Assembly (NCBI GenBank): GCA_965219535.1
Contig: CBDCNV010000002.1
Span: 2,130,001-2,162,000, forward strand
Length of the DNA stretch: 32,000 bases
Direction of reading: 5' to 3'
From: Opitutales bacterium
Lineage (GTDB): Bacteria > Verrucomicrobiota > Verrucomicrobiia > Opitutales > PNEW01
Positions 7,146-32,000 of this stretch are shown here, in pieces (position 1 is the first letter of the stretch; each line of letters opens with the position of its first letter). Under the pieces are notes generated by a model, which made no database searches, was not told where the DNA came from, and saw only the letters and a program-made list of their open reading frames with translations. A program made the translations under genes and the position numbers.

Positions 7146-7270
7146 TTTCACTTTTAATTCCACCAACCTTTTATTAGCAAAACTAATTTAATCCTGACAC
7201 AATATTAGATACATACATTATATAGTGCAAGGAAAATGAGGTATTTATCCTATAAAAAAAATGTAAAAAT

Positions 7271-12568: not shown

Positions 12569-12588
12569 ATATAAGCTTCCTAATTCCA

Positions 12589-14865: not shown

Positions 14866-14879
14866 TTAGAATATACATT

Positions 14880-16463
14880 ATGAATAATGTTCTTATAAAT
14901 AAAAGGAGAACTAACGTTTATTTTTCCGGTAAACTTATTCAAGGTTTGCTCCTAATAATGTCCTTGGGACCTGTTACCCATGCAGATGACTGGCCTATGT
15001 GGGGGCGCGACTCGAGTCGCAATATGGTTGCTTCGGTCAAAGGTCTTCCGGATTCATTTGACCTTGGAAAAGCTGAGGAGGGGAGTGAAGAAATAGACCA
15101 GGCAACGACGCGCAATATTCGATGGGTGGCCAAATTAGGTTCGCAAACTTATGGCAACCCAACGGTGACGGGTGGTAAAGTCTATGTCGGAACTAATAAT
15201 GAAGTGCCGCGTGATCCCGACAATGTTGGTGATCGAGGTATCCTCATGTGTTTCGATGAAAAAACGGGTGATTTCCTCTGGCAGCTTAGTGTCCCCAAGC
15301 TCGGGGCGGGTAAAGTAAGCGACTGGGAATATATTGGTATCTGTTCATCACCCGTCGTAATTGATGACTTTGTTTACATCGTCACTAACCGCGGTGAAGT
15401 TCTTTGTCTGGATGTGCACGGAATGAAAAATGGCAACGATGGTCCCTACAATGAAGAAGGCCAATTTATGGCAGGTCCAGGTAAACCGCCGGTGAAGGTT
15501 AAAGACATGCATGCGGACATCATATGGCGTTTTGACATGCGCGATGAACTCGGCGTATTCCCGCACAATATTACGAGTTGTTCCCCTCTCGTTGTTGGAA
15601 ACCATGTTTATGCGACTACTTCTAATGGCGTAGATTGGTCACACACAAACATTCCGGCTCCTTTCTCTCCGAGCTTTATTGTTCTCGATAAAAAAACCGG
15701 AACCCTGCGCGGTGAAGAGGATTCCGGTATTAGCGCCCGCGCATTGCATGCCTGTTGGACATCGCCGACATACGGTGAAGCGAGCGGAAAAGGAATCATA
15801 ATATGGGGCGGATCAGATGGATGGTGCTATGGATATGATCCAGTCCCGGTCAAGGGTGATGACGATTTCAATGTGCTGAATGAACGCTGGCGTTTCGATT
15901 GCAATCCCCCTGAATACCGTACTAAAGACGGTAAACCTATACGATACGCAACATCATTAGGCCCCAGCGAAATTATCGCTACTCCTGTATATTATAATGA
16001 TCGTGCTTATATAGCTATCGGGCAAGATCCCGAACACGGTGATGGTGTCGGTCAATTGAGCTGCATTGATATTTCTAAAGAAGGGGATATTACGAAAGAA
16101 GGTGCAGTTTGGACCTACCAGGGAGTTGGCAGGACGATATCAACCGTTTCAATCGCCGACGGGTTGCTTTACATCGCTGAATACGCGGGCAAGATACATT
16201 GCCTCAATGCGGATACTGGAGAGCCTTATTGGATCTATGACACCCAAAGCCGCATTTGGGGTTCTACACTGGTTAGCGCTGATAGAGTATATGTCGGTAA
16301 TGAAGACGGGGACTTAACGATTTTAAAGGCGGGTAAAGCAATGCAGTTTATTAATAAAATAAATTTCAATGCACCCATCTACAGCAGTCCTATCGCTGCC
16401 AATGGGACCCTCTACGTTGCAAGCCAATCACACCTCTTTGCGATTGGAGGGTCGTCTCCATGA
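14880..16463 (+). CDS. Secreted PQQ-like beta-propeller repeat protein, paralog 3
   Basis: It has a signal-like N-terminus (GKLIQGLLLIMSLGPVTHA), then DDWPMWGRD. Blades include CFDEKTGDFLW, CLNADTGEPYW and GTLYVASQSHLFAIG. Confidence 0.75.
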   Translation: MNNVLINKRRTNVYFSGKLIQGLLLIMSLGPVTHADDWPMWGRDSSRNMVASVKGLPDSFDLGKAEEGSEEIDQATTRNIRWVAKLGSQTYGNPTVTGGKVYVGTNNEVPRDPDNVGDRGILMCFDEKTGDFLWQLSVPKLGAGKVSDWEYIGICSSPVVIDDFVYIVTNRGEVLCLDVHGMKNGNDGPYNEEGQFMAGPGKPPVKVKDMHADIIWRFDMRDELGVFPHNITSCSPLVVGNHVYATTSNGVDWSHTNIPAPFSPSFIVLDKKTGTLRGEEDSGISARALHACWTSPTYGEASGKGIIIWGGSDGWCYGYDPVPVKGDDDFNVLNERWRFDCNPPEYRTKDGKPIRYATSLGPSEIIATPVYYNDRAYIAIGQDPEHGDGVGQLSCIDISKEGDITKEGAVWTYQGVGRTISTVSIADGLLYIAEYAGKIHCLNADTGEPYWIYDTQSRIWGSTLVSADRVYVGNEDGDLTILKAGKAMQFINKINFNAPIYSSPIAANGTLYVASQSHLFAIGGSSP

Positions 16464-16723
16464 ATAAATTAAAATTAGGTGCTAAAGAGGGTGTTTATAT
16501 TTTTCTCATCCTTCTTTTTTTTATCCATCAAGACTACTGGTTCTGGGACAATGGTAGTTTAATAATGGGATTTATTCCCCTTGGCCTCATCTACCATATA
16601 GGTTATTCGATTGTAGCGGCAATCGCCTGGTTCCTGGCGATCAAGTATGCCTGGCCCTCCCATTTGGAAAGTTTCTCGGAGCAAGGGGAAGACTCCACTT
16701 CTACAACAAGCGAGGCACGATGA
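16460..16723 (+). CDS. Small membrane protein, DUF3311-like (symporter-associated)
   Basis: 87 aa with two TM helices and FWDNGSLIMGFIPLGLIYHIGYSIVAAIAWF. ATGA overlaps join it to the preceding propeller gene and to the following SSS transporter, the usual DUF3311-SSS arrangement. Confidence 0.65.
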   Translation: MNKLKLGAKEGVYIFLILLFFIHQDYWFWDNGSLIMGFIPLGLIYHIGYSIVAAIAWFLAIKYAWPSHLESFSEQGEDSTSTTSEAR

Positions 16724-18228
16724 CACCATTGATTATAATTTCTTGTTATCTCATTTTGCTATTTGTTTTGGGGCAGGTTAGCGGTAAGTTTTTTCGTGGA
16801 ACTCCGAATGACTTTTTTGTAGCCAGTAGATCGATAGGGCCATTCCTGCTCTTAATGTCTGTCTTTGGGACCACGATGACGGCTTTCGCCATGGTCGGCA
16901 GTACCGGCGAAGCTTACAGGATTGGAATCGGGACTTATGGTAAAATGGCATCCTGGTCCGCGCTGATTCATTCAGCCTGTTTTTTCTTCATCGGCATTCG
17001 ACTCTGGTCATTTGGAAAGCGTTATGGTTATAAGACCCAGATTCAGTTTTTTCGCGATCGATTCGAAAGCAATGCGATTGGGGTGATTATGTTTCCTATC
17101 CTTGTAGGTCTGGTCATTCCTTACCTCCTAATCGGATTACTGGGGGCTGGTAGTCTTGTTCGAGGAGTAACTACCGGGGCTTTTCCCGAGATCTTCAGCG
17201 AAACACGGGGCGCAGTGCCACCCTGGATTACGGCGGCGATTATTTCATTCGTTGTCCTTACTTATGTATTGCGTGGAGGCGTTCGCAGCGCCGCCTGGGC
17301 AAATACTTTTCAAACCCTGGTTTTTATGGTTATGGGGATTTTCGCTTTCGTAATTATTTCCATTAAGCTGGGGGGCCCGACCGCTGCCAGCCAGATGGCG
17401 GATCCGGTAAAATTGATTCGTGGCGATGCTATTCCCAGCATTCAGTTTTTTACTTACTGTTTTATACCACTCTCTGTGGCGATGTTTCCTCATCTCTTTC
17501 AGCATTGGCTCACCGCTAAGTCCGCGAAGACATTTCGGCTGACTTTGATTGCGCACCCGCTCTTTATTATGATTACCTGGGTTCCCTGCATACTGATTGG
17601 AGTATGGGCAACCGGAGCGGTTATCGATGGGGTACAAATAGTCCCTACGGGTGTTAATCCTAACGCGGTGCTTGGTATAATGGTTGGCAAATTAACGAAT
17701 CCATTAATTGCCGGTCTAGTAGCTTCGGGAGTGCTCGCAGCGATCATGTCGTCGCTCGATTCTCAATTTGTCTGCCTGGGGACGATGTTTACGGAAGACA
17801 TGGTTCTTCATACTTTCAAACTAAACCGACTGACTGAAAATCAGATTTTATGGACCGCTCGCGGGTTTATAACGCTCATTGTTCTCATTACATTTCTTTT
17901 ATCACTCGCCAATCCGGTACAGATATTTTCGCTTGGCGTGTGGTGCTTCAGTGGATTTGGGGCACTCTTTCCGGTAGTTTTTGCCGCTCTATATTGGAAA
18001 CGCGTAACCCGTGCGGGTGCAATTAGCTCGATCATCGTAGCGGCGATCACCTGGTTTTATCTCTTTCGCGAATCAGGTTATGGGATCAACCGTGGTTATC
18101 TGATCGCAGACGCCATGCCAGTGGTCTTTGTATTTATAGCTTGCATGCTGACATTAGTTATCGTTTCTCTTCTGACGAAACCCCCCTCAGAGGAAACGTT
18201 GAATAAATTTTTTCCTAAAGAATTGTAA
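16720..18228 (+). CDS. Sodium:solute symporter (SSS) family transporter
   Basis: 502 aa with ~13 hydrophobic helices and an SSS-like N-terminal region (FFVASRSIGPFLLLMSVFGTTMTAFAMVGSTGEAYRIGIG). The substrate cannot be assigned from sequence alone. Confidence 0.8.
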   Translation: MTPLIIISCYLILLFVLGQVSGKFFRGTPNDFFVASRSIGPFLLLMSVFGTTMTAFAMVGSTGEAYRIGIGTYGKMASWSALIHSACFFFIGIRLWSFGKRYGYKTQIQFFRDRFESNAIGVIMFPILVGLVIPYLLIGLLGAGSLVRGVTTGAFPEIFSETRGAVPPWITAAIISFVVLTYVLRGGVRSAAWANTFQTLVFMVMGIFAFVIISIKLGGPTAASQMADPVKLIRGDAIPSIQFFTYCFIPLSVAMFPHLFQHWLTAKSAKTFRLTLIAHPLFIMITWVPCILIGVWATGAVIDGVQIVPTGVNPNAVLGIMVGKLTNPLIAGLVASGVLAAIMSSLDSQFVCLGTMFTEDMVLHTFKLNRLTENQILWTARGFITLIVLITFLLSLANPVQIFSLGVWCFSGFGALFPVVFAALYWKRVTRAGAISSIIVAAITWFYLFRESGYGINRGYLIADAMPVVFVFIACMLTLVIVSLLTKPPSEETLNKFFPKEL

Positions 18229-18282
18229 ACACCCTTTAACGTAACCGTAATCCTGTACGTTTTAGGTCATCAATAAAAGACG

Positions 18283-18463
18283 AACGCGGTAGGGACACCC
18301 CGTTCCACCAATATTGCATTATTCATTTTTCGTTATTATGTATTTCAGATTTAGAGGGTGGAACGGGCTGCCTGACCGCCATAGCCTTGGCGAAGGCTGG
18401 TTCCCAGCGCGCTTCTTTTTTTTAATACTAAAAATAAACGCGGTGAGACACTACGTTCCACCA
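18283..18463 (+). repeat. Two copies of the AACGCGGTAGGGACAC..CGTTCCACCA dispersed repeat plus an internal 11-bp inverted repeat and a T8 tract
   Basis: Copy 1 is at 18283-18310 and copy 2 (aacgcggtgagacactacgttccacca) at 18437-18463. cccgttccacc (18299-18309) pairs with ggtggaacggg (18357-18367). ggctggttcccagcgcgcttc + T8 (18395-18423) matches 3521-3547. Confidence 0.65.
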
Positions 18464-18516
18464 AAATAGCTTTAATTAATTATATTCTATTATATAGAAA
18501 TCTGATGTAGTGACGA

Positions 18517-18546
18517 TTGATAAAAGTAATTATAATTTGATATAAT
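18517..18546 (+). promoter_or_regulatory. Sigma-70-like promoter candidate (TTGATA - 18 nt - TATAAT) immediately upstream of the 13-gene operon
   Basis: ttgata at 18517-18522 and tataat at 18541-18546; the ATG of the first gene is at 18555. The region is very AT-rich, so chance matches are likely. Confidence 0.3.
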
Positions 18547-18554
18547 AACCAAAG

Positions 18555-19650: not shown

Positions 19651-21090
19651 ATGGAACAATTAACACATTTATCCGCTTTAAGGCATGGCACTCCCTATCA
19701 GAGTCTGGATACAGATGAGATAGTAGATATCCGCTATGGCAAACCCCTGGCAAACGTCAGCCAGGTGAACGCGGGATTGATCAAACGTGATTCTCGCAAT
19801 AATCGCTCGGCCAGAGAAGCGCTCTCATCGGTAAATTCGGAGCAATTACTACAGATTTGCAGGGAAGCGGGCGATTTGTTTTTAAAGTCTGAACTCCCGA
19901 TAGATTCTACTGAGACACGACAAAGCCCAGGGGCTTTCATTGAATCACTCTCAGCTACGACTGGTCTGCCTCACACGCTTTGCAAATTAAATATGGAAAA
20001 GATTCATTCTGTTCTTACGAATATGGAACAGATATTGAGCGGGTTAAGCCGGGGATTACCACCCGCTATATTTGATACTTTTTTAAGTGAACACGAGGGA
20101 ATGGAAGTTTGCTTTTATCCGGTTGCCGACAGTCTGAGTATTGTCCTGCCAAGTAATTCTCCCGGTGTTAATTCTCTTTGGCTTCCCGCTCTCGCAATGA
20201 AAATTCCCGTCATCATTAAACCGGGGCGAGAAGACCCCTGGACACCGACACGTATCATTCAAGCCTTATATGTGGCAGGTCTTCCAAGAGAAGCGATCAG
20301 TTTTTATCCGACCGACCACGAGGGGGCGAACGTTATACTTGAAAACTGCGACCTGGGTATGGTGTTTGGCGGTGAAAGTACGGTTAATCAATATGCGAAT
20401 GACTCTCGCATTCAAATCCATGGCGCTGGTCGAAGTAAAGTGCTTATCGGTAATGATTGTGTCGATCGCTGGCCGAGTTACATCGATGTTATCACCGATT
20501 CGATTGTCGCAAATGGAGGGCGTAGTTGTATTAACGCTTCAACGATTGTCACGCCGAAATTTGGAAAAGAAATTGCCGAGGAATTGGCGAAGCGTGTCAG
20601 TGGGATTCAAGCGCTTTCATTAGAGGACGATGGCGCGCAACTTGCCGGTTTTGCCAATCCCAAAATGGCCGAGGCCATAGACGCAATAATTGAAAATGGA
20701 TTGGAGTCTGAAGGCGCAGAAGATATCACCGGTCGCATGCGGGATGGCCCACGCAAAGTTCAAAACAATGGGCAGACCTATCTATTACCGACGATAGTGA
20801 ACTGTGAGAGTTTCGAACATCCACTGGCGAACTGTGAGTTGTTGTTTCCTTACGCCAGTGTCGTGGAGATACCGCAGGATGAAATGTTGGAGAGTATTGG
20901 TCCTTCATTGGTTGTCACGGCGATAACAAATAATGAGAGTTGGATAACGGAGCTTTTAAAATCTTCACAGATTGATCGGCTTAATATTGGTGCAACCCCA
21001 ACCAGTGTAGTTTACTGGGATCAACCGCATGAAGGTAATCTCTTCGAATTCCTATACCGACGAAGAGCCATTCATCAAGCGAAGGCATAA
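19651..21090 (+). CDS. Aldehyde-dehydrogenase-superfamily protein, LuxC-like acyl-(CoA/protein) reductase candidate
   Basis: The 479-aa size fits. It has a Cys-loop GGRSCINAS (Cys ~293) and a cofactor-binding region SIVLPSNSPGVNSLWLPALAMKIPVIIKPG. The segment aligned to ALDH ELGGKSP reads IHGAGRSK, so the hydrolytic Glu is absent. It sits directly after the LuxE-like gene. Confidence 0.6.
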   Translation: MEQLTHLSALRHGTPYQSLDTDEIVDIRYGKPLANVSQVNAGLIKRDSRNNRSAREALSSVNSEQLLQICREAGDLFLKSELPIDSTETRQSPGAFIESLSATTGLPHTLCKLNMEKIHSVLTNMEQILSGLSRGLPPAIFDTFLSEHEGMEVCFYPVADSLSIVLPSNSPGVNSLWLPALAMKIPVIIKPGREDPWTPTRIIQALYVAGLPREAISFYPTDHEGANVILENCDLGMVFGGESTVNQYANDSRIQIHGAGRSKVLIGNDCVDRWPSYIDVITDSIVANGGRSCINASTIVTPKFGKEIAEELAKRVSGIQALSLEDDGAQLAGFANPKMAEAIDAIIENGLESEGAEDITGRMRDGPRKVQNNGQTYLLPTIVNCESFEHPLANCELLFPYASVVEIPQDEMLESIGPSLVVTAITNNESWITELLKSSQIDRLNIGATPTSVVYWDQPHEGNLFEFLYRRRAIHQAKA

Positions 21091-21097
21091 CACAATT

Positions 21098-22252
21098 ATG
21101 ATTGGCTTTGAAGCAAAGGCAGCGCCTCGAATTATTTATGGGGTCGACGCCGTTGATGAGATCGGTTCACTGGTCAAGTCAATCGGCGCGAGCAGGGTAT
21201 TACTTGTAACTGATCCAGGCATTGTATCCGCCGGCCACATGGACCGCGTTGCAAAAAGACTGCGCCAATCAAGTATAGACTTTTGTGCGTTCACTGATGT
21301 TGAAGAAAATCCATCGACGAGAGAGGTAGAGCGTTGCGTAGAGACCGCGCGTGCGGCAGAAGTGGATTTGATAATCGGGTTGGGTGGAGGAAGCAGCCTC
21401 GATACCGCCAAGGGCTGTAATTTTATTTTATCTAACGGTGGCAAAATCGAGGATTACAAAGGATACGGCAAGGCTTCAAAGCCCCTGTTACCTTTCATCG
21501 CGATTCCCACAACGACAGGGACGGGAAGCGAATGTCAGTCTTACGCTTTGATTGCAGAAGAAGATTCGCATGAGAAAATGGCGTGCGGTGATCCCAAGGT
21601 GATGGCAAAAATTGCGATATTAGATCCCAGTCTGGCTAAATCCCAACCACGTTTTGTCATCGCATGCACCGGCTACGATGCAATGGCCCATGCAATTGAG
21701 TCAGCCGTATCGCTTAATCACAACGAGTTGTCTTTGCTTTACTCGCGAGAAGCGTTTCGCTTGGTTAATGCTAATCTGGATATCGTTTTGGCTTCTTCAG
21801 AGATAGAAGCTCTGGGTGCCATGCTTCTTGGTGCGGCATACGCGGGTCTCGCAATAGAGAACAGTATGCTCGGGAGCGCCCATTCAGCAGCAAATCCATT
21901 GACTGCAAAATTTAATGTTATCCATGGTAATGCGGTGGGGATGATGCTGCCGCATGTAATGCGCTACAATGCAGTTGAGGCAAGCGCCGCTAAAAATTAT
22001 GCTCTTTTGGCGACCACTGTCGGAATTGCGACAAACACAGACACCCAAGAGGAAGCATGTGAACGACTGATTTCGCGAGTAGAAGATCTACTCGAGCAGT
22101 CGGCGTTATCCACTGCCCTTTCAGATTTCAAAGTGTCTCGCAATGATATACCTGATCTAGCTGCAGATGCATCTAAACAATGGACCGCTCTTTTTAATCC
22201 ACGTCCCGTATCAGCTGAAGATTTCGTCACCCTTTACGAGACCGTGCTTTAA
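21098..22252 (+). CDS. Iron-containing (group III) alcohol dehydrogenase
   Basis: GLGGGSSLDTAKG, IPTTTGTGSE and metal-site His motifs (DAMAHAIES; GSAHSAANPL...HG). The start is set at the ATG at 21098, 7 nt after the preceding TAA. The listed ORF start at 21029 overlaps the upstream gene and adds a non-homologous extension. Confidence 0.85.
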   Translation: MIGFEAKAAPRIIYGVDAVDEIGSLVKSIGASRVLLVTDPGIVSAGHMDRVAKRLRQSSIDFCAFTDVEENPSTREVERCVETARAAEVDLIIGLGGGSSLDTAKGCNFILSNGGKIEDYKGYGKASKPLLPFIAIPTTTGTGSECQSYALIAEEDSHEKMACGDPKVMAKIAILDPSLAKSQPRFVIACTGYDAMAHAIESAVSLNHNELSLLYSREAFRLVNANLDIVLASSEIEALGAMLLGAAYAGLAIENSMLGSAHSAANPLTAKFNVIHGNAVGMMLPHVMRYNAVEASAAKNYALLATTVGIATNTDTQEEACERLISRVEDLLEQSALSTALSDFKVSRNDIPDLAADASKQWTALFNPRPVSAEDFVTLYETVL

Positions 22253-22309: not shown

Positions 22310-23515
22310 ATGGTACGAATTAAAAGATATGCGTTAGTTTTTATATTGAGCTCCATTATGGAAGTAGGTTCGGGGCCCACATTGAATGGCGATGTCGGAA
22401 TATCAGAACCTGCAATCGCGATTAAGAAAACCGAGATATTAACTAAATACAAAAATCATCCCAATAGTTGGCCTATGCACCGGGGTGGACCCCAATTAAA
22501 CGGGCAGGTAAATGAGTCGGTGGCGGAAAAGTTAAAACTCCACTGGGTATTTGATACCGGTGCTCCCATAAAATCATCTGCCGCGGTTGAAGATGATCTA
22601 ATCTTTATTGGGTCCGACACGGGTAAAGTGCACGCCTTGGAAATTAATTCCGGCCTTGAGATCTGGTCTTTCGAGACTGGTGGGCAGGTAGAAGCGACAC
22701 CTTGTGTAGTAAATGATACCGTATACATAGGATCGTCCGATAACTTTTTTTATGCGCTCGCCACAATGACCGGCGAATTAAAATGGAAATATCGGACTGA
22801 GGGCAGAATACTAGGAGCTGCCAATTGGGTATTAAATCCAGATGGAAACGGGTACTGGATACTTTTCGGCAGTTATGATGGAAGTTTGTACTGTGTGGAT
22901 GCGGAGACAGGTCAAACAGTCTGGAAGCATAAAACAGAATACTATGTCAACGGCACGCCGGCAATCACCCAGGGTGGGGAAGTGGTCTTTGGTGGATGCG
23001 ATTCCTATATTTATATCTTGCGTCTCAGTGATGGCGCCGAGCTGCGTAAGATAGATTCAGGAGCATACATTGCCTCTTCAATTGCTCTCGCTGATGGAAA
23101 TGGTTATGTCGGGCACTATAATAATGAAGTGCTCGCCTTTGATCTTAAGACGGTAGAAATTCTTTGGACTTACAGTACTAGTAGCTTCCCTTTTTTTTCA
23201 TCAGCAGCAATTACTTCGGACAGTGTTGTTATCGGAAGCCGGGATAAACAATTGCATTGTATTAACCGATTTACCGGTGAAGGGCTCTGGCGATTTCAAA
23301 CCCAGGGGACTATCGACAGTTCACCCATTGTATGTGGCAACTTTATAGTATTTGGATCAAGTGATGGCCGACTTTACTCAGTTAACCTTTCGAATGGGAA
23401 AATAGTGTGGTCTTACGACATTGGTGCCCCGGTAACCGCATCTCCGGCGTTCGCACACGGTAAAATCGTAATCGGTGCAGAAGATGGGTCTGTCTATGTG
23501 TTTGACGCTAGCTAG
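22310..23515 (+). CDS. Secreted PQQ-like beta-propeller repeat protein, paralog 4, embedded in the biosynthetic operon
   Basis: It has a signal-like N-terminus MVRIKRYALVFILSSIMEV, then SWPMHRGGPQLNG. Blades include ALEINSGLEIW, CVDAETGQTVW, CINRFTGEGLW and GSVYVFD. Confidence 0.7.
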   Translation: MVRIKRYALVFILSSIMEVGSGPTLNGDVGISEPAIAIKKTEILTKYKNHPNSWPMHRGGPQLNGQVNESVAEKLKLHWVFDTGAPIKSSAAVEDDLIFIGSDTGKVHALEINSGLEIWSFETGGQVEATPCVVNDTVYIGSSDNFFYALATMTGELKWKYRTEGRILGAANWVLNPDGNGYWILFGSYDGSLYCVDAETGQTVWKHKTEYYVNGTPAITQGGEVVFGGCDSYIYILRLSDGAELRKIDSGAYIASSIALADGNGYVGHYNNEVLAFDLKTVEILWTYSTSSFPFFSSAAITSDSVVIGSRDKQLHCINRFTGEGLWRFQTQGTIDSSPIVCGNFIVFGSSDGRLYSVNLSNGKIVWSYDIGAPVTASPAFAHGKIVIGAEDGSVYVFDAS

Positions 23516-24889: not shown

Positions 24890-25447
24890 ATGGATGGTCC
24901 AACAAAAGAAGTGACTTCTGAAATGCTTTACCCGCTGTCACTGTTTTGTGATAGCGTCAATCAGGAAGCTCTTGGAATTCAAGTTATCGAAGAATCAGAG
25001 CTCGGGGAACCCGATCGCAGTCTACTCGCACATTGCAGCGATATGACGACAAAACTCGAGACCTTTCACCACGGCACTATTGAACTCCTGGTGTTACAGT
25101 GCTCGATGGAAAGTGATTCGCACCGTCGCGAAGTTGTCCTACGAATTAAAGGAAGTGAAAAACCGGTAGAATATGGTGCAATCGATATAAATCTCGCAGC
25201 ATTTAATGAACAGGTTCGTGAGATAATTATTCGGGGTCAGCGCCCGTTGGGAGGAATCTTAACTGACTTTAATATAAATTACAAAAGCGAGCCGATGGCA
25301 TTCATCAAAGTTACCTCTAATGCCAACATTAATAAGGCACTTGGGCTCACTGAATCGCGGGTCCTTTATGGGAGGCGCAATGTGTTGAAAGGAGACTTGG
25401 GAATAGACATAGCGCATATTATTGAGATTTTACCTCCTTCTCAGTGA
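24890..25447 (+). CDS. Chorismate pyruvate-lyase (UbiC) family protein
   Basis: By-eye alignment to E. coli UbiC, recalled from memory: LLAHCSDMTTKLE vs LLLEDSMTKRFE; RREVVLRIKGSEKPVEYG vs LREILLCADGEPWLAG; QRPLGGIL vs KTPLGRYL; LYGRRNVL...IIEILPP vs LWGRRSRL...LTELFLP. Confidence 0.6.
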   Translation: MDGPTKEVTSEMLYPLSLFCDSVNQEALGIQVIEESELGEPDRSLLAHCSDMTTKLETFHHGTIELLVLQCSMESDSHRREVVLRIKGSEKPVEYGAIDINLAAFNEQVREIIIRGQRPLGGILTDFNINYKSEPMAFIKVTSNANINKALGLTESRVLYGRRNVLKGDLGIDIAHIIEILPPSQ

Positions 25448-25466
25448 GGAGTATAAACTAGAGCTG

Positions 25467-26726
25467 ATGGATGGAAAACACCGATATGATGTTCTTATCA
25501 TAGGGGGTGGTCCCGCTGGATCGACCGCGGCGGCAATACTTGCGGAGAAAGGACATAAAGTTCTCATTCTTGAAAAAGAGAAATTTCCGCGCTATCACAT
25601 CGGTGAGTCTCTTATGCCCTTTTGCTATTTCACTCTTGAGCGGCTAGGTGTCGTCAATGAATTGAGAAAATCAGCTTATCCAAAAAAATACAGTGTTCAA
25701 TTTATTCGTGAGACCGGTGAAGTTTCGCAACCGTTTTACTTTTTTCAACATTTCGATCATGAAGCTTCAACCACTTGGCAGGTTCCGCGTTCCGAATTTG
25801 ACTTAATGCTGCTCAATAACGCGCGTGACCGGGGAGCGGAAGTCCGCGAGCAGACAACGGTGAAGCGATTGATTAAAGAAGAGGGGGTTGTGGTTGGGGT
25901 AGAGGCAGTGACCGACAGTGGTGAACAATTGGACTTAAAAGCACCAGTAACTATCGATGCCTCCGGACGTGATTGTGTATGTGCGGCCAAAGAAGGATGG
26001 CGTGTTCGCGATCCGGAGCTGAATAAAATATCGATTTGGACCTATTACAGTGGAGCAAAGCGTGATCCGGGCCTTGATGCCGGTGCAACGACGATTGCAT
26101 ATATCGCAGAGAAGGGTTGGTTCTGGTATATCCCACTGCCAGATGATAGGGTGAGTGTGGGAGTCGTTGCGGATCAAAAATACCTCTATAACGAATCCCG
26201 AGATCGAAAGACGATATTTGAACGTGAGATTAAGTGTAACCCCTGGATAAAAGACCACCTCGATGGCGGTAATCAATTCGGGGCGTACTACGTAACCGGA
26301 GAATACTCTTATCGATCACGCTATTGTGCTGCAGATGGCCTCGTCCTTGTAGGCGATGCCTTTGCTTTTCTAGATCCGGTTTTTTCTTCGGGCGTGTTTC
26401 TCGCTCTCTGGAGCGGCGAGAAAGCGGCAGATGCGGTTGATAACGCTTTGACTGAGGGAGATTGTACGAGCGCACGCTTTGCTGATTATGGTGAAGAACT
26501 CTGTCACGGTATTGAAGCTATGCGAAAACTTGTTTATGCCTTTTATGATTTGAATTTCAGCTTTGGAAAGCTTCTTCATAAAAATCCTCACCTGCGAGGA
26601 AAACTTACCGATGGTTTGATCGGTGATCTCTTCAAAAAAGACTTTGATGAGCTGTTCTCCGCCATCGGTCAATCGGCAACCCTTCCCGAACCGCTCAGTT
26701 ATGGCCGCCCAACACTTAATAAATGA
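25467..26726 (+). CDS. FAD-dependent halogenase-like oxidoreductase (flavin-dependent halogenase / geranylgeranyl-reductase superfamily)
   Basis: YDVLIIGGGPAGS (GxGxxG), KFPRYHIGESL, GWFWYIPL (WxWxIP) and FAFLDPVFSSG (Fx.Px.Sx.G). The start is set at the ATG at 25467, with GAGGAG 15 nt upstream; the longer ORF from 25422 overlaps the upstream gene. Confidence 0.65.
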   Translation: MDGKHRYDVLIIGGGPAGSTAAAILAEKGHKVLILEKEKFPRYHIGESLMPFCYFTLERLGVVNELRKSAYPKKYSVQFIRETGEVSQPFYFFQHFDHEASTTWQVPRSEFDLMLLNNARDRGAEVREQTTVKRLIKEEGVVVGVEAVTDSGEQLDLKAPVTIDASGRDCVCAAKEGWRVRDPELNKISIWTYYSGAKRDPGLDAGATTIAYIAEKGWFWYIPLPDDRVSVGVVADQKYLYNESRDRKTIFEREIKCNPWIKDHLDGGNQFGAYYVTGEYSYRSRYCAADGLVLVGDAFAFLDPVFSSGVFLALWSGEKAADAVDNALTEGDCTSARFADYGEELCHGIEAMRKLVYAFYDLNFSFGKLLHKNPHLRGKLTDGLIGDLFKKDFDELFSAIGQSATLPEPLSYGRPTLNK

Positions 26727-28021
26727 ATATTTTATTTATAACACCGGGGACAGGAAGTTATTATTGTGGTGTTTGCATGCGAGATAACGCGTTGGTCACG
26801 GCACTGCGTCAACTGGGTCACAATGCTAAAATGCTGCCGATTTATTTACCGATTGTGACTGACGAACAATCAGTGAGTGATGAAATGCCTATTTTTTTTG
26901 GGGGTATAAATGTGTATCTACAGCAAAAACTCTCTTTTTTCCGGCATACACCGACCTGGATGGACAATATCTTTAATAACCGGAGTCTACTTCGATTAGC
27001 CAGTCACCGCAGCAGTATGACTGAGGGTGCTGAATTGGGCTCTATGACTGTATCCATGCTGGAAGGTGAAACTGGATTGCAAGCTAAAGAGATAACGAAA
27101 CTTGTAAATTGGCTCTGCAATGAGGAGCCACCGGATATTATTTGTCTCTCAACTGCACTGCAAGTTGGGATGGCGCGTCGCATTAAAGAGGCAATGCATG
27201 TCCCCGTCGTCTGCTTTTTCCAGGGAGAGGATAGTTTTCTCGATGCGCTCGATAATCCCTATAGTGACAAGGCCTGGATGACGCTTCGCGAACGGGTTGT
27301 GGATATTGATGTCTTCATCGCGCCGAGCGCTTATTTCGCAAACCTAATGAAGCAGCGGCTCCAATTGGATGAGAATAAAATGCGGGTTATTCCTAACGGG
27401 ATTAATCTGGAGGGATACTCGCCGTCTTCGAAAATCCCCAATCCGCCGGTGATTGGGTTTTTATCGCGAATGATGGAAAATAAGGGAATGGATTTACTTG
27501 TTAACGCCTTTATTTTATTAAAAAGACGTGAGACTGCCAGGCAATATAAATTAAGTATTGCCGGGGTGGTGACAGCGAAAGATAAACAATTTATCGAAGA
27601 ACAAAAAGCTAAATTAAAAAGCGCTGGATTAAGTTCGGAGGTGGAATTCCTTCCCAATCTCAATCGAGAGGATAAATTAGAATTTCTAAAAAAGCTCTCT
27701 CTCTTTTCTGTTCCAGCCAGGTATGGAGAAGCTTTTGGGCTCTATTTATTAGAAGCAATGGCTGCAGGTGTTCCCGTGGTTCAACCCCGTCATGCGGCTT
27801 TTCCAGAACTAATCGAAGCTACGAGTGGGGGTAGACTTTGCGAACCGAATGATCCTCAATCTTTGGCTGACAGTTGGGAGGACATTTTGGCGAATCCTGA
27901 AGAGGCTCGTTCGATCGGGCTGCGCGGTCGTCAATCGGTGATTGAAAAATTTTCAATTCACGACATGGCTAAAACAATCGAACTGACTTGTCGGAAATTA
28001 GTGCAATCAATTGAGAGTTGA
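26723..28021 (+). CDS. Glycosyltransferase family 4 (GT-B fold)
   Basis: It has the E-x7-E motif region GEAFGLYLLEAMAAGVPVV and an N-terminal MNILFITPGTGSYYCG... The ATGA overlap with the upstream gene suggests translational coupling. Confidence 0.8.
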   Translation: MNILFITPGTGSYYCGVCMRDNALVTALRQLGHNAKMLPIYLPIVTDEQSVSDEMPIFFGGINVYLQQKLSFFRHTPTWMDNIFNNRSLLRLASHRSSMTEGAELGSMTVSMLEGETGLQAKEITKLVNWLCNEEPPDIICLSTALQVGMARRIKEAMHVPVVCFFQGEDSFLDALDNPYSDKAWMTLRERVVDIDVFIAPSAYFANLMKQRLQLDENKMRVIPNGINLEGYSPSSKIPNPPVIGFLSRMMENKGMDLLVNAFILLKRRETARQYKLSIAGVVTAKDKQFIEEQKAKLKSAGLSSEVEFLPNLNREDKLEFLKKLSLFSVPARYGEAFGLYLLEAMAAGVPVVQPRHAAFPELIEATSGGRLCEPNDPQSLADSWEDILANPEEARSIGLRGRQSVIEKFSIHDMAKTIELTCRKLVQSIES

Positions 28022-28039
28022 TGTAATAGATTAATAATA

Positions 28040-28495
28040 ATGGCACACGAATTTAAATTAACAAGAATTGTAGAGTTTGCCGAGACAGACATGGCAGGCA
28101 TTATGCACTTTTCAAACTTCTTTCGTTTGATGGAGGAAACCGAGCACGTGTTCTTTCGTTCACTCGGAATCTCTGTGCACCAGGAAATAGGTAATCAGCT
28201 AATCGGATGGCCGCGTGTGAACGCCACCTGCGAATATTCACATCCGTTAAAGTTCGAAGATAAAGTGGAAATTCATCTCCTGGTTAAGGAAATCCGAGAA
28301 AAATCGATAACTTATCAATACCAGTTCCGAAATATTGACGGTGATGACACGTTTGCTGTTGCGCGGGGAGAGATCACGACGATCTGTGTCCAATTAAATG
28401 TGAAAAATGGTGATATGGAATCGATTGCGATTCCTTCTCAGATACTCGATAAGATTGATTCCGCACCTCCTGAAATGCTAAAGGTGCAAGACTGA
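28040..28495 (+). CDS. Acyl-CoA thioesterase, 4-hydroxybenzoyl-CoA thioesterase / YbgC (hotdog) family
   Basis: RIVEFAETDMAGIMHFSNFFRLMEETEHVFFRSLG carries the catalytic-Asp motif typical of 4HBT class I / YbgC. The 151-aa size fits. Confidence 0.75.
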   Translation: MAHEFKLTRIVEFAETDMAGIMHFSNFFRLMEETEHVFFRSLGISVHQEIGNQLIGWPRVNATCEYSHPLKFEDKVEIHLLVKEIREKSITYQYQFRNIDGDDTFAVARGEITTICVQLNVKNGDMESIAIPSQILDKIDSAPPEMLKVQD

Positions 28496-28551
28496 ACAAT
28501 CAGTATTTTTCAGTTAATAGTATGAAACACAAAAAAGGAGCTAAACCGAAT

Positions 28552-29064
28552 ATGAATTGGTTATTTTTTGCATTAATGACTGTCCTCTTTTGGGGGGTAT
28601 ACGGAGTTTTTTTACACTCCGGTCAAATGGGTATGGCAGATCCTGAAAACGGGCGTTACAAAGCGTTTTTGTTTGTCGGGATAGCGTATTTCTTTACCGC
28701 AATCGTGGCCCCGTTGATATTATTGATGATTCATGGTGCCTCATGGTCTTTTCCCGGTAAGGGAGTATTCTGGTCATTGATAGCAGGGGTAACAGGTGCA
28801 GTTGGCGCTTTTGGCGTCCTTCTCGCTTTTGGAGCAAAAGGTTCACCGAGTGTTGTCATGGCTATTGTTTTTGCGGGGGCGCCCATTGTGAATGCACTCG
28901 TAGCATTGCTCTGGCACCCACCGGCGGGTGGATGGGGAGTCATCCGTTGGCCTTTTTACCTTGGTATTTTACTGGCTGCATTGGGTGGTTGCCTCGTGAC
29001 TTTATATAAACCCGCACCGACCGTGCATGTGAACAGGGGTGTTGTTGAGCAAGGGCATAAGTGA
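28552..29064 (+). CDS. Small integral membrane protein (about 5 TM, single EamA/DMT-like domain?)
   Basis: Hydrophobic throughout (NWLFFALMTVLFWGVYGVFL..., GILLAALGGCLVTLY). AAGGAG at 28535-28540 favours the ATG at 28552 over 28522. The family assignment is tentative. Confidence 0.5.
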   Translation: MNWLFFALMTVLFWGVYGVFLHSGQMGMADPENGRYKAFLFVGIAYFFTAIVAPLILLMIHGASWSFPGKGVFWSLIAGVTGAVGAFGVLLAFGAKGSPSVVMAIVFAGAPIVNALVALLWHPPAGGWGVIRWPFYLGILLAALGGCLVTLYKPAPTVHVNRGVVEQGHK

Positions 29065-30317
29065 TCGTAGAGGATAGTCAACTTAAGCAGCTCCAGACGT
29101 TGCTAAAGGGGTTGGTCCCCACAAACAGTTTTTATTCTCAACGCCTGCGTGAGGCTGGTATTGATGAGTCGATTGGCAGCCTCGAAGTATTTACTAAAAA
29201 TCTACCTTTTACTTTTAAGTCAGAATTAATAGATGACCAGGCGGAGCATTCCCCCTATGGATCCAATCTTACGTTTCCCCTCAATCAATACACCCGGTTT
29301 AACCAAACGAGCGCGACAAAGGGGAGGCCGATGATTTGGCTGGATACTCCGGAGAGTTGGGAATGGATGTTAGATAATTGGGCAGTAGTCTATGAGAATG
29401 CCGGTGTTATACCGGGAGATAAATTATATTTTGCTTTTTCATTTGGGCCTTTTTTAGGATTTTGGACCGCATTTGAATCGGCTACCCGGCTCGGCTGCTT
29501 ATGTATTCCAGGAGGGGGACTGAGCAGTGTCGCAAGGTTAAGGGCGATTATTCAACATAAGGTAAAGTTTCTCTGTTGTACTCCCACCTATGCTTTGTAT
29601 CTGGCGGAAGTAGCGTCAGAGGAGAATATAGATCTCAATACGTCAGCAGTTGAAACGATCATCGTTGCGGGGGAACCGGGCGGCAGTTTGTCTCATGTTC
29701 GCAATCGAATCACTGAATTATGGAATGGCGCACAATTGTTTGATCATTACGGGATGACCGAGGTCGGACCTGTTGCCTATCAGGATCCCAACGAGAAGGA
29801 TATTATGCGCATCATAGAAAGCAGTTATTTTGCCGAAGTTGTAAATTCTCAATCCGGTGAACCTGTACGTTCGGGGGAAGTAGGGGAACTTGTCTTGACT
29901 ACCTTGGGGCGATCGGGATCGCCATTATTGCGTTATCGAACGGGTGATTTAGTTAAACCGATAGAAATTGGTGAAAATACAAATGTTAGAATGGGATTAG
30001 AGAAAGGAATCCTCGGGAGGTCAGATGATATGATAGTGGTGCGAGGGGTAAACCTATACCCCAGTGCCGTGGATGATGTTGTCAGATCTTGTCAAGGAAT
30101 TGCTGAGTACCGCGTGCGCGTCAACAATCTTCAATCTCTGATCGAGGTATCCATCGAAATAGAAGTGAAGAATGAAATTTCTAATGAAGATATAGCGCAC
30201 AAATTAGAGAGTGCGTTGAATTCTGTTTTTTCCCTGCGCATTCCGGTATCAATTATGGAGCGCGGTTCGCTTCCCAGATTTGAGATGAAGGCAAAGCGCT
30301 GGCACACCTCGGATTAG
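29061..30317 (+). CDS. Phenylacetate-CoA ligase (PaaK) / coenzyme F390 synthetase family adenylating enzyme
   Basis: FNQTSATKGRP (degenerate P-loop), DHYGMTEVG, GELVLTTLGRSGSPLLRYRTGDL and GRSDDMIVVRGVNLYP are all PaaK-family hallmarks. It has a GTG start in a GTGA overlap with the upstream stop. Confidence 0.8.
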   Translation: MIVEDSQLKQLQTLLKGLVPTNSFYSQRLREAGIDESIGSLEVFTKNLPFTFKSELIDDQAEHSPYGSNLTFPLNQYTRFNQTSATKGRPMIWLDTPESWEWMLDNWAVVYENAGVIPGDKLYFAFSFGPFLGFWTAFESATRLGCLCIPGGGLSSVARLRAIIQHKVKFLCCTPTYALYLAEVASEENIDLNTSAVETIIVAGEPGGSLSHVRNRITELWNGAQLFDHYGMTEVGPVAYQDPNEKDIMRIIESSYFAEVVNSQSGEPVRSGEVGELVLTTLGRSGSPLLRYRTGDLVKPIEIGENTNVRMGLEKGILGRSDDMIVVRGVNLYPSAVDDVVRSCQGIAEYRVRVNNLQSLIEVSIEIEVKNEISNEDIAHKLESALNSVFSLRIPVSIMERGSLPRFEMKAKRWHTSD

Positions 30318-30338: not shown

Positions 30339-31034
30339 ATGCTGCTGGAGTTAAAAAAGGTTGATAAAAGTTATCCTGCACCAGAAGGAGACGACCGCAT
30401 CGAAGTATTGAAAGGTGTTAATCTGACCGTAGAAGCTGGTGAAGGTATCGCCATAGTCGGACCATCAGGATCCGGGAAGAGCACTTTATTAAATATTATA
30501 GGCGGATTAGATCGGCAGACCGCCGGAAAAATACTGATCGATGACCAGGATATTTTAGGTTTCGACGAAAAGGAATTAGCCTCTTTTCGCAATACAACGG
30601 TGGGATTTGTTTTTCAATTACACCACTTATTACCGCAATGCAGTATCCTGGAAAACGTTTTAATTCCTTCGATTGTAAATAAAGATTCCAGCAAACGGGC
30701 GGAAGTGAAACAGCGCGCGGAACATTTGCTTGAAACGGTAAACTTGCAGCATCGTTTGACTCATCGTCCAGGTGAGATTTCGGGCGGTGAGCGCCAGCGC
30801 GCAGCGGTTGCGCGCGCGCTGATTAATAAACCTAAATTAATTCTCGCTGATGAGCCTACCGGTTCTCTTGACCGGGATTCATCAGACGGCATGGCAGAAC
30901 TTCTTGCGGATATAAACCAACGTTTAGGAGTGACCTTAATTGTCGTTACCCATGCATCTGAGGTGGCTGCGCGCATGAAACGCGTTTTTACTTTGCAGGA
31001 TGGTGAATTAAATTTGCAAAAGAAATCCCCATGA
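30339..31034 (+). CDS. ABC transporter ATP-binding protein, LolD/MacB-type
   Basis: Walker A GPSGSGKST, signature ISGGERQR and Walker B LILADEPTGSLD. AAGAGGA lies 9 nt upstream of the ATG. Confidence 0.9.
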   Translation: MLLELKKVDKSYPAPEGDDRIEVLKGVNLTVEAGEGIAIVGPSGSGKSTLLNIIGGLDRQTAGKILIDDQDILGFDEKELASFRNTTVGFVFQLHHLLPQCSILENVLIPSIVNKDSSKRAEVKQRAEHLLETVNLQHRLTHRPGEISGGERQRAAVARALINKPKLILADEPTGSLDRDSSDGMAELLADINQRLGVTLIVVTHASEVAARMKRVFTLQDGELNLQKKSP

Positions 31035-32000
31035 CGGCATGGAAGATTGTTTGGCGTAGTTTGCGCTACTATTGGCGTACACACCTCGGTGTAGTGTTGG
31101 GTACTGCGATTGGCGCGATGGTGCTCATCGGCGCATTGCTGATTGGAGACTCCGTGAAATACACGCTTAAGGAACTTGCTCTGCTACGTATCGGTAAGAT
31201 CGATGTGTCACTCTATTCACCGGAACACTTTTTTCGCGAAGCATTGGCAGAAGACCTCAAGCGGGAAGAGAAGGGTGAGCTTGCGATTGCACCTGTAATT
31301 TTACTGCGGGGAAATGTCGTTACTCCTGACCGATCTCATCGTGCTAACAATGTGCAAGTACTCGGGGTAGATGATCAGTATTGGCCGCTTTCATTTTCTG
31401 GTAGCACAAAAGAAGATCTACAAGCGAATAAAATGTACATTAATGAAAGTCTGGCTAATAAACTGGGTGTAAGCTCTGGAGAGACTTTAGTCCTTCGTAT
31501 CGAAAAACCGGGATTTCTTTCACGCGATGCTCCTTTGTCAGGTAGCCATGATGATGCCGTTGCCATACGCGGTGTGGTGAAATCAGTTCTTACTGATAAT
31601 GATCATGGACGTTTCGGTCTGCAAGCCACCCAGATCCCGTCAAATAATATCTATTTACCGCTTGCATTGATTCAAGAACGCCTGGAATTAAAAGATAAAG
31701 TAAACCTGTTGTTAGTGGGGAGTGAGGGTAGTCATCCTGTCACCGCAGAGCGCGCAAATGCGCTGCTTCAAAAGGAATGGCAGCTGGAGGATTTGGGTTT
31801 AAGTATAAAAACTCTAACTCCAGATAATGTTTGGGAGCTTCGTTCACAAAGCGTTTTTATCAATCCTTATATTGCCGATTATGCAAAATCCATACTTCCC
31901 AGTTCCTCGGGTGTTTTGACTTACTTTGTAAATGGAATACGTGCAGGAGAGAGAGAGACTCCTTATTCTATAGTCTCTGCCATAAATCCATCCGTGCACG
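31031..32000 (+). CDS. ABC transporter permease, FtsX/MacB-like, large form; 3' end runs off the window
   Basis: This gene is not in the supplied ORF track because it has no stop in the window. My manual translation from the ATG at 31031 (ATGA overlap) is open to base 32000: MTAWKIVWRSLRYYWRTHLGVVLGTAIGAMVLIGALLIGDSV..., TM1 followed by a long periplasmic-type domain, as in MacB/LolC-like permeases. Confidence 0.7.
   Translation, partial: MTAWKIVWRSLRYYWRTHLGVVLGTAIGAMVLIGALLIGDSVKYTLKELALLRIGKIDVSLYSPEHFFREALAEDLKREEKGELAIAPVILLRGNVVTPDRSHRANNVQVLGVDDQYWPLSFSGSTKEDLQANKMYINESLANKLGVSSGETLVLRIEKPGFLSRDAPLSGSHDDAVAIRGVVKSVLTDNDHGRFGLQATQIPSNNIYLPLALIQERLELKDKVNLLLVGSEGSHPVTAERANALLQKEWQLEDLGLSIKTLTPDNVWELRSQSVFINPYIADYAKSILPSSSGVLTYFVNGIRAGERETPYSIVSAINPSVH

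Follow-up and report, generated by a model that had tools for sequence, protein, structure and literature searches.

Comparison with described pathways

In the bromophenol pathway of Pseudoalteromonas (Bmp6/Bmp5) and in the ambigol pathway, where Ab5, Ab6, Ab8 and Ab10 lead to 3-chloro-4-hydroxybenzoate, a chorismate lyase feeds 4-hydroxybenzoate (4-HBA) to a flavin-dependent halogenase. Of these halogenases, Bmp5 resembles a monooxygenase, works as a single component and decarboxylates its substrate, and Ab10 acts on carrier-bound 4-HBA. The same logic could be read in a 32,000-nucleotide stretch of an Opitutales bacterium (GCA_965219535.1, contig CBDCNV010000002.1, positions 2,130,001 to 2,162,000; hereafter the window), which carries side by side a gene for a 185-residue protein with a predicted chorismate lyase fold (the UbiC-like protein) and a gene for a putative flavin-dependent halogenase. 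In contrast to Bmp5 and Ab10, the latter is of the CndH/PltA/Bmp2 type, and in place of a carrier protein, which is not encoded, there are a coenzyme A (CoA) ligase and a hot-dog thioesterase. The two genes are not a stand-alone two-enzyme system and sit inside a conserved operon whose other products include a radical S-adenosylmethionine (SAM) enzyme, a module for aryl-acid reduction, a glycosyltransferase and an exporter. This operon, which many bacteria of soil and sea have in common, probably makes a halogenated hydroxybenzoate-type compound.

The closest precedent is the pair BaaA/BaaB of Planctomycetales strain 10988, from which 3,5-dibromo-p-anisic acid was isolated and for which the adjacent UbiC-like and halogenase genes were proposed, without genetic proof, by Panter et al. 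(10.1101/723874). There, as in the window, a UbiC-like gene adjoins a flavin-dependent halogenase gene in a member of the Planctomycetes-Verrucomicrobia-Chlamydiae superphylum, but that paper gives two genes only and reports no radical SAM enzyme, thioesterase, ligase or wide conservation (10.1101/723874). The pairing of lyase and halogenase is therefore not new as an idea, since BaaA/BaaB were published in 2019. What is new is the carrier-free architecture, with a PaaK-type ligase and a 4HBT thioesterase in its stead and a HemN-like radical SAM partner beside the halogenase. This lineage has, in addition, a glycosyltransferase, an exporter and an aryl-acid reductase of the EhpF/EhpG type. New, too, is the breadth over which the cassette is conserved. 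BaaA/BaaB may be part of the same cassette as the window and as a Planctomycetia locus (L045) that holds radical SAM, UbiC-like, halogenase, thioesterase, membrane-protein and ligase genes (orthology is inferred). A literature search returned nothing relevant on the combined gene set, on the structures 8ZOP and 3NIX, or on follow-ups of BaaA/BaaB.

The flexirubin cluster contains the same trio of PaaK-like ligase (FlxY), thioesterase (FlxH) and halogenase (FlxK), and the aryl ring of flexirubin bears methyl and/or chlorine substituents ortho to the hydroxyl group. That pathway, however, starts from tyrosine via an ammonia-lyase, employs the type 12 methyltransferase FlxJ and has no radical SAM enzyme in its gene table, whereas the row described here has no dialkylresorcinol genes. 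Pfam and motif scans found neither a ketosynthase nor an acyl carrier protein in the 32-kb window, and for this reason an aryl-polyene or flexirubin cluster was rejected.

The first two genes of the row, a full-length EhpF homolog followed by an aldehyde dehydrogenase (ALDH)-family gene, repeat the arrangement of ehpF-ehpG in the biosynthesis of the phenazine D-alanylgriseoluteic acid; here, however, there are no phenazine genes, the substrate must differ, and the ALDH of the window is very divergent. EhpF and EhpG were reportedly proposed by Bera et al. in 2010 to reduce an aromatic carboxylate to the aldehyde via an acyl-adenylate.

The flavin-dependent halogenase homolog

An earlier note, made from the DNA letters and their translations, had singled out the two open reading frames (ORFs), and both were found where it had placed them, on the + strand, the second as an ORF of 434 residues spanning 25422-26726. 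Since orthologs are called at 419 residues, ATG 25467 is a likelier start for this second gene than TTG 25422; it is situated 19 bp past the stop of the UbiC-like gene on the same strand. The four motifs quoted in the note are all present in the 434-residue ORF, namely GGGPAG (residue 28), KFPRYHIGES (54), GWFWYIP (232) and FLDPVFSSG (316). In the 419-residue protein, whose numbering is used below, the FAD (flavin adenine dinucleotide)-binding GxGxxG motif corresponds to GGGPAG at residues 13-18.

Residue conservation was counted in 84 relatives from four phyla. The glycines of the FAD-binding motif are invariant (84/84), as are Trp218, Trp220 and Pro223 of WxWxIP and Phe301, Asp303, Pro304, Ser307 and Gly309 of FxDPxFSxG. 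In the phmmer alignment, Lys76 of CndH pairs with the second lysine of YPKKYSVQF, which is Lys74 here, and this active-site lysine is retained in all 84 relatives. The lysine of KFPRY turned out to be variable (Lys in 61, Arg in 8, Thr in 6 and His in 4 of the 84) and is not the catalytic residue.

The Pfam model Trp_halogenase matches the protein with 103 bits, and among the NCBIfam models that of the halogenase CmlS fits best, although its equivalog cutoff is missed by far. In a phmmer search of PDB sequences, nine of the ten best matches are named halogenases (FasV/8zop, CndH, ChlB4, PltA, CmlS, Bmp2, Mpy16 and RadH among them; E 2e-55 to 3e-30) and the tenth is the uncharacterised 3nix; geranylgeranyl reductase (GGR) comes next with E 5e-20. 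The AlphaFold model (pLDDT 80) places CndH, PltA, ChlB4, FasV, Bmp2 and Mpy16 at Foldseek ranks 1-11 and GGR at rank 44. By these scores and ranks, the flavoprotein sides with the halogenases and not with the GGRs, and sequence and model together make it a variant-B flavin-dependent halogenase homolog of the CndH/PltA/Bmp2 type. The earlier note had named a grouping with GGRs together with loss of the lysine, or the lack of a chorismate lyase fold in the neighbour, as grounds for refutation, and neither was observed.

A carrier-tethered substrate, a variant-B trait of the closest structural relatives, has no counterpart here: the Pfam scan gave no PP-binding match and the motif scan no GxDS[LIVM] ORF in the cluster, in agreement with the absence of a carrier protein claimed before. 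What the cluster does encode is a CoA ligase and a thioesterase. A paralog 55% identical to the halogenase is found directly downstream of a hybrid polyketide synthase-nonribosomal peptide synthetase (PKS-NRPS) of more than 2,500 residues (L075 80-9290, from a metagenome-assembled genome (MAG) of Chthoniobacter sp.) with aminotransferase, luciferase-like, C, A, PCP and TE domains, a setting typical of tailoring enzymes. Another paralog (L077) follows propeller, GDSL lipase, 175-residue unknown and ceramidase-like genes.

The chorismate lyase-like protein

The UbiC-like protein is distant from every curated family. The Pfam model Chor_lyase gives it 14.2 bits (cutoff 23.6 bits), and it falls below the gathering scores of both PF04345 and PF01947; among 48 members of its own family, three match Chor_lyase at E<=1 and one matches PF01947. 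When the profile of these 48 sequences was aligned to UbiC with hhalign, an E value of 1.6e-4 was obtained over residues 45-175, with LLxxxDMT placed on LLEDSMT, PLG on PLG and GRRN on GRRS. In this alignment the invariant Arg80 pairs with the catalytic Arg76 of UbiC (R77 of the precursor; LREILL). Invariant in 42-48 family sequences are Asp51, Met52, Arg80, Pro119, Gly121, Arg162 and Glu179. Because the family hidden Markov model (HMM) scores E. coli UbiC only 0.6 bits, homology to UbiC rests on profile-profile and fold evidence.

The AlphaFold 2 model of the protein (pLDDT 88) shows the chorismate lyase fold. Its best Foldseek match is the DUF98 protein AF1396 (2nwi; E 1e-7, TM 0.67/0.76), followed by UTRA effector domains and then by UbiC itself (1fw9; E 2e-4, TM 0.52/0.57); the DUF98/Rv2949c-like family includes proven chorismate pyruvate-lyases. 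The protein thus shares the fold and the motif pattern, including the catalytic arginine, with UbiC (PF04345), Rv2949c-like/DUF98 proteins (PF01947) and UTRA domains, but stays below both Pfam thresholds. Of the alignment by eye with UbiC, which the earlier note had drawn across the whole length, the fold and the motifs stand, whereas the relationship is remote. On sequence and model, the 185-residue protein is a remote relative of chorismate lyase with the chorismate-lyase/UTRA fold.

UbiC-like proteins form their own large, unnamed family. A word-indexed search returned eight homologs, and a profile search of 1.84 billion representatives returned 1,743 clusters at 50% identity with E<1e-3, of which 420 had E<1e-30; some members of the protein's own cluster are called at 174 residues. 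The representative search also yielded two candidate fusions, radical SAM::UbiC-like (P0213, 613 residues) and UbiC-like::4HBT (P0250, 324 residues), which may be gene-calling artefacts.

Conservation and the radical SAM partner

A scan of species-representative genomes with the halogenase alignment gave at least 577 confirmed relatives, and the ORFs of the best 80 loci were examined and annotated with the window proteins. These loci come from Verrucomicrobiota (Opitutaceae, Chthoniobacterales, Verrucomicrobiales, Roseibacillus, Pedosphaera and others), Acidobacteriota (Bryobacterales, Terriglobia), Planctomycetota, Lentisphaerales and one Bacteroidota MAG. Synteny with Opitutaceae MAGs is the basis for placing the window in Verrucomicrobiota. 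The gene order is identical in a close relative (L001), and the full 12-gene order was found again in many Verrucomicrobiota among the 80 (Opitutaceae, Chthoniobacterales, Verrucomicrobiales, Roseibacillus). A core of radical SAM, sometimes UbiC-like, halogenase, thioesterase and ligase genes recurs in Verrucomicrobiota, Acidobacteriota and Planctomycetota (Bryobacterales, Terriglobia, Planctomycetia). The adjacency of the genes is not due to chance, since the same order is seen in dozens of genomes of several phyla. Companion genes are the propeller (35 loci), the GT4 glycosyltransferase (29) and the small membrane protein (22).

In evolution, the halogenase is tied most tightly to the radical SAM enzyme and not to the lyase. 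Where enough upstream DNA was available, the radical SAM gene lies directly upstream of the halogenase gene in 51 of 71 loci (24 of 25 in Acidobacteriota, 26 of 43 in Verrucomicrobiota), and the Verrucomicrobiota loci that lack it mostly hold halogenase paralogs of lower identity (53-56%). In one Bryobacterales locus (L031, 6575-9251) the pair was found alone between DUF885, FAA hydrolase and M19 dipeptidase genes, as judged by Pfam. Other Bryobacterales loci (L035, L037 and L038) resemble it by BLAST.

In the window, the radical SAM gene ends 15 bp upstream of the UbiC-like gene. The protein has the same core, GGGTP motif and HemN_C domain as HemN, HemW, ChuW and the class C methyltransferases (NocN), but scores below every curated cutoff (ChuW, HemN and HemW in NCBIfam; 179 bits with HemN TIGR00538, cutoff 325), and in its CRKRCHFCYF sequence a phenylalanine replaces the fourth cysteine of the HemN motif CX3CX2CXC. 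A phenylalanine at this position is the state of HemW and of the methyltransferases. PDB matches are HemN (1olt, E 7e-31) and NocN (E 2e-20). A housekeeping HemN or HemW was discarded in view of the sub-cutoff scores and the missing fourth cysteine. By analogy with class C methyltransferases such as NocN, ring C-methylation is the best guess for the step that the enzyme would catalyse.

The 4HBT thioesterase and the PaaK-like ligase, named as neighbours in the earlier note, were recovered by Pfam, NCBIfam and PDB matches. The closest PDB entries of the thioesterase include 4-hydroxybenzoyl-CoA thioesterases (5wh9, E 2e-15; 1bvq, E 3e-7). The ligase matches PaaK (4r1l) with E 6e-47; the NCBIfam models PaaK and FlxY both stay below cutoff, the latter with 141 bits against 520. 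At the start of the row, the 357-residue protein matches EhpF over its full length (E 7e-44) and Pfam AMP-binding only weakly, and the following ALDH-family protein has weak PDB matches, to ALDHs. Both genes keep their positions in Verrucomicrobiota loci. A LuxE/LuxC fatty-acid reductase had been considered for this pair and was dropped, as Pfam gave no support and EhpF was matched instead.

Proposed pathway and alternative explanations

The row can be read, with about even chances, as an operon that makes and exports a ring-modified derivative of 4-HBA; substrates, step order, halide use and product are inferred throughout from the observed genes, folds, motifs, conservation, gene order and candidate fusions. 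In this scheme the UbiC-like protein would convert chorismate to 4-HBA and pyruvate, and the PaaK-like ligase would activate 4-HBA to 4-hydroxybenzoyl-CoA, the phosphopantetheine arm of CoA taking the place of the carrier protein that variant-B halogenases normally need. With FADH2, O2 and halide, the halogenase would then halogenate the ring ortho to the hydroxyl group via Lys74, and the HemN-like radical SAM enzyme would introduce a second ring modification, most likely a C-methylation as in class C methyltransferases. The 4HBT thioesterase would release the free acid. In this lineage, the EhpF/EhpG-like pair may further reduce the carboxylate to the aldehyde via an acyl-adenylate and the iron-containing alcohol dehydrogenase may give the benzyl alcohol, while the GT4 enzyme would glycosylate the product and the small membrane protein, together with the LolD/MacB-type ABC (ATP-binding cassette) system, would export it. 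The halogenated hydroxybenzoate proposed in the earlier note remains a reasonable product class, given the grouping of the halogenase, the lyase fold and the BaaA/BaaB precedent, but the pair to which it was ascribed is only part of a larger operon; the HemN-like radical SAM gene, the GT4 gene between halogenase and thioesterase and the EhpF/EhpG-like pair had gone unmentioned. A wider proposal is that the radical SAM-halogenase pair forms the core of an unrecognised multi-phylum pathway, to which Verrucomicrobiota and Planctomycetota add a dedicated chorismate lyase, CoA ligase and thioesterase, making halogenated and probably C-methylated 4-HBA metabolites on CoA and not on a carrier protein; in this full form it is doubtful.

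Several observations weigh against this scheme. The Pfam/NCBIfam scan of the 185-residue protein gave no match at E<0.01. Its Glu179 lies on the last strand (IIEILPP, LTELFLP in UbiC) and aligns with the glutamate of AF1396 (ITEFFP); it may be the counterpart of Glu155 of UbiC, its register relative to Glu155 of UbiC being uncertain by one residue, with hhalign ending four residues earlier and the ungapped extension off by one. Family scans found no flavin reductase in the window. The ligase and the thioesterase would run a futile cycle unless tailoring occurs on the thioester, as is assumed here, and the chemistry of the radical SAM enzyme is guessed from family resemblance. Of the Verrucomicrobiota loci, 27 of 43 have the UbiC-like gene between those of the radical SAM enzyme and the halogenase, compared with only 4 of 25 from Acidobacteriota, and the Pfam check of L031 showed no lyase, ligase or thioesterase gene near the pair. 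As the UbiC-like gene is mostly absent from Acidobacteriota and the L031 pair stands alone, 4-HBA and CoA tethering need not be universal. Halogenase and radical SAM enzyme both have thousands of homologs, with 60-66% identity between phyla, which is unusually high for secondary metabolism. The main doubts thus concern halogenation in vivo by so conserved a flavoprotein and the role of 4-HBA as substrate where the lyase is absent.

This same conservation would be accounted for if the flavoprotein did not halogenate in vivo and worked with the radical SAM enzyme as a conserved pair, for instance in the hydroxylation or reduction and the methylation of a common aromatic or quinone-like metabolite. 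Such a system would be nearer to the biosynthesis of a cofactor or envelope component than to secondary metabolism, and individual lineages would have added the UbiC-like, ligase and thioesterase genes. The link between radical SAM enzyme and flavoprotein is the most conserved one of the locus, nearly universal in Acidobacteriota and kept in L031 among unrelated genes, and among the sub-cutoff NCBIfam matches of the flavoprotein are a monooxygenase (QhpG) and two maturases (LodB and GoxB). The invariance of the catalytic lysine, WxWxIP and FxDPxFSxG, the halogenases at the top of the sequence and fold matches with GGR far behind, and the paralog that follows a PKS-NRPS speak against this explanation, which is unlikely. 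The UbiC-like protein, for its part, might have the fold and act on, or only bind, another ligand (isochorismate, aminodeoxychorismate or a CoA thioester), or it might serve the radical SAM enzyme as a binding or chaperone subunit of the UTRA type; the halogenase substrate would then come from elsewhere. It belongs to no Pfam or NCBIfam family, its family HMM hardly recognises E. coli UbiC, non-catalytic UTRA domains fit its model about as well as UbiC does, its gene is dispensable in most Acidobacteriota cassettes and a candidate fusion joins it to the radical SAM enzyme. Family-wide conservation, however, falls on the catalytic and product-binding motifs of UbiC (DMT/SMT, Arg, PLG, GRR and a C-terminal Glu), and the best structural match is to the DUF98/Rv2949c-like family with its proven lyases. 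This alternative is improbable.

A PaaK-type ligase and a 4HBT thioesterase are also typical of aromatic acid catabolism, and a sodium:solute symporter is encoded just upstream, so that the row could be thought to serve the uptake and the degradation or detoxification of (halo)aromatic acids via CoA thioesters, much as the 4-chlorobenzoate pathway employs a ligase and a 4-hydroxybenzoyl-CoA thioesterase. This is very improbable: no ring-cleavage, dehalogenase or beta-oxidation genes are present in the cluster, the chorismate-lyase-like enzyme, the glycosyltransferase and the MacB/LolD-type exporter favour synthesis and export, and a 326-bp gap with a promoter-like site parts the symporter from the row. 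An alternative menaquinone head-group pathway, which would use a lyase-like enzyme, a CoA ligase and a MenI-like thioesterase, was rejected because neither a prenyltransferase nor a MenB-like enzyme is present and the invariance of the halogenase residues speaks against it.

Were the wider multi-phylum proposal correct, Verrucomicrobiota, Acidobacteriota and Planctomycetota, which abound in soils, fresh waters and the sea, would be a large overlooked biological source of haloaromatic acids, aldehydes and benzyl alcohols. If the enzymes act as their residues suggest, organohalogen production would be common in some of the most abundant uncultured heterotrophs of soil and water. The breadth is considerable, with halogenase relatives in several hundred species-representative genomes and a UbiC-like family of about 1,700 clusters. 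In that event, the locus would also provide the first variant-B halogenase acting on a CoA thioester and a substrate for an unassigned HemN-like radical SAM family. With four or five soluble proteins, the system is small enough for direct testing.

Organization of the gene row

The row comprises about 13 genes, all on the + strand, from 18555 to beyond 32000 (Table 1), and is operon-like and tightly packed, with successive spacings of 22, 7, 57, 21, 15, 19, -4, 18, 26, -4, 21 and -4 bp. The likely start of the iron-containing alcohol dehydrogenase is an internal methionine at about 21098, orthologs being called at 384 residues. An AT-rich gap of 326 bp (18229-18554) precedes the first gene and holds the promoter-like site, which is weak evidence because the total of such sites in the region does not exceed that of shuffled sequences. 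Rfam gave no riboswitch or other RNA in the window, this gap included.

Table 1. Features of the gene row and the matches on which each description is based
Feature	Position	Strand	Evidence and remarks
Promoter-like site TTGATA-18-TATAAT with TG	18517..18546	+	best of region; 11/12 match; just ahead of the first gene, within the one large gap between genes
EhpF-like truncated adenylating enzyme, ANL superfamily, 357 aa	18555..19628	+	PDB EhpF 3l2k/3hgu
Divergent aldehyde-dehydrogenase-family protein, EhpG position	19651..21090	+	Pfam Aldedh 59 bits
Iron-containing alcohol dehydrogenase	21029..22252	+	Pfam Fe-ADH 172 bits and ADH_Fe_C; NCBIfam matches below cutoff
PQQ_2/BamB-like beta-propeller, hydrophobic N-terminus	22310..23515	+	Pfam Beta-prop_ACSF4 222 bits, PQQ_2
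HemN-like radical SAM enzyme, 445 aa	23537..24874	+	Pfam; CRKRCHFCYF, GGGTP, HemN_C domain
UbiC-like (chorismate-lyase fold) protein, 185 aa	24890..25447	+	fold, hhalign, motifs
Variant-B flavin-dependent halogenase homolog, 419 aa	25467..26726	+	Pfam, PDB, motifs; ORF extends upstream to TTG 25422
GT4-family glycosyltransferase	26723..28021	+	Pfam Glycos_transf_1 108 bits, Glyco_transf_4; start overlaps halogenase stop by 4 bp
Hot-dog 4HBT/YbgC-type thioesterase, Asp17 (read from translation)	28040..28495	+	Pfam 4HBT_2, 4HBT
Small polytopic membrane protein, 180 aa, weakly EamA-like	28522..29064	+	Pfam EamA E 0.006, below cutoff
PaaK-like aryl-acid CoA ligase	29061..30317	+	Pfam AMP-binding and AMP-binding_C_2
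LolD/MacB-type ABC ATPase	30339..31034	+	NCBIfam LolD 267 bits (cutoff 308); Pfam ABC_tran
MacB/FtsX-type permease, cut by window end	31031..32000	+	Pfam MacB_PCD; full-length ortholog in L001 1107 aa, with FtsX

Four PQQ_2/BamB-like propeller paralogs are encoded in and just upstream of the operon (11330-16463 and 22310-23515, + strand), with a weak match to the 'acido-empty-quinoprotein' model, and in one of the loci (L002) a propeller gene is placed between the halogenase and GT4 genes. A pathway to an alternative pyrroloquinoline quinone-like cofactor for empty quinoproteins, suggested by these neighbours, was set aside, as nothing but adjacency speaks for it. The sodium:solute symporter gene (16720-18228, + strand) is preceded in L001 by a small DUF3311 gene.

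Other features of the window

Further upstream, a full-length OvoA is encoded (8447-10576, + strand), whose 5-histidylcysteine sulfoxide synthase domain (705 bits) and C-terminal methyltransferase domain (313 bits) both exceed the NCBIfam cutoffs; going by these sequence matches, ovothiol is probably among the products of the organism. A hybrid sensor histidine kinase with PAS, HisKA, HATPase and receiver domains is found 15 kb upstream of the operon (1573-3159, + strand). Between them, on the - strand (3735-7166), lies the gene of a 1143-residue protein with seven PATR (passenger-associated transport) repeats and a GC content of about 54%, compared with about 45% in the rest of the window, of a kind typical of the large autotransporter-like proteins of Verrucomicrobiota.

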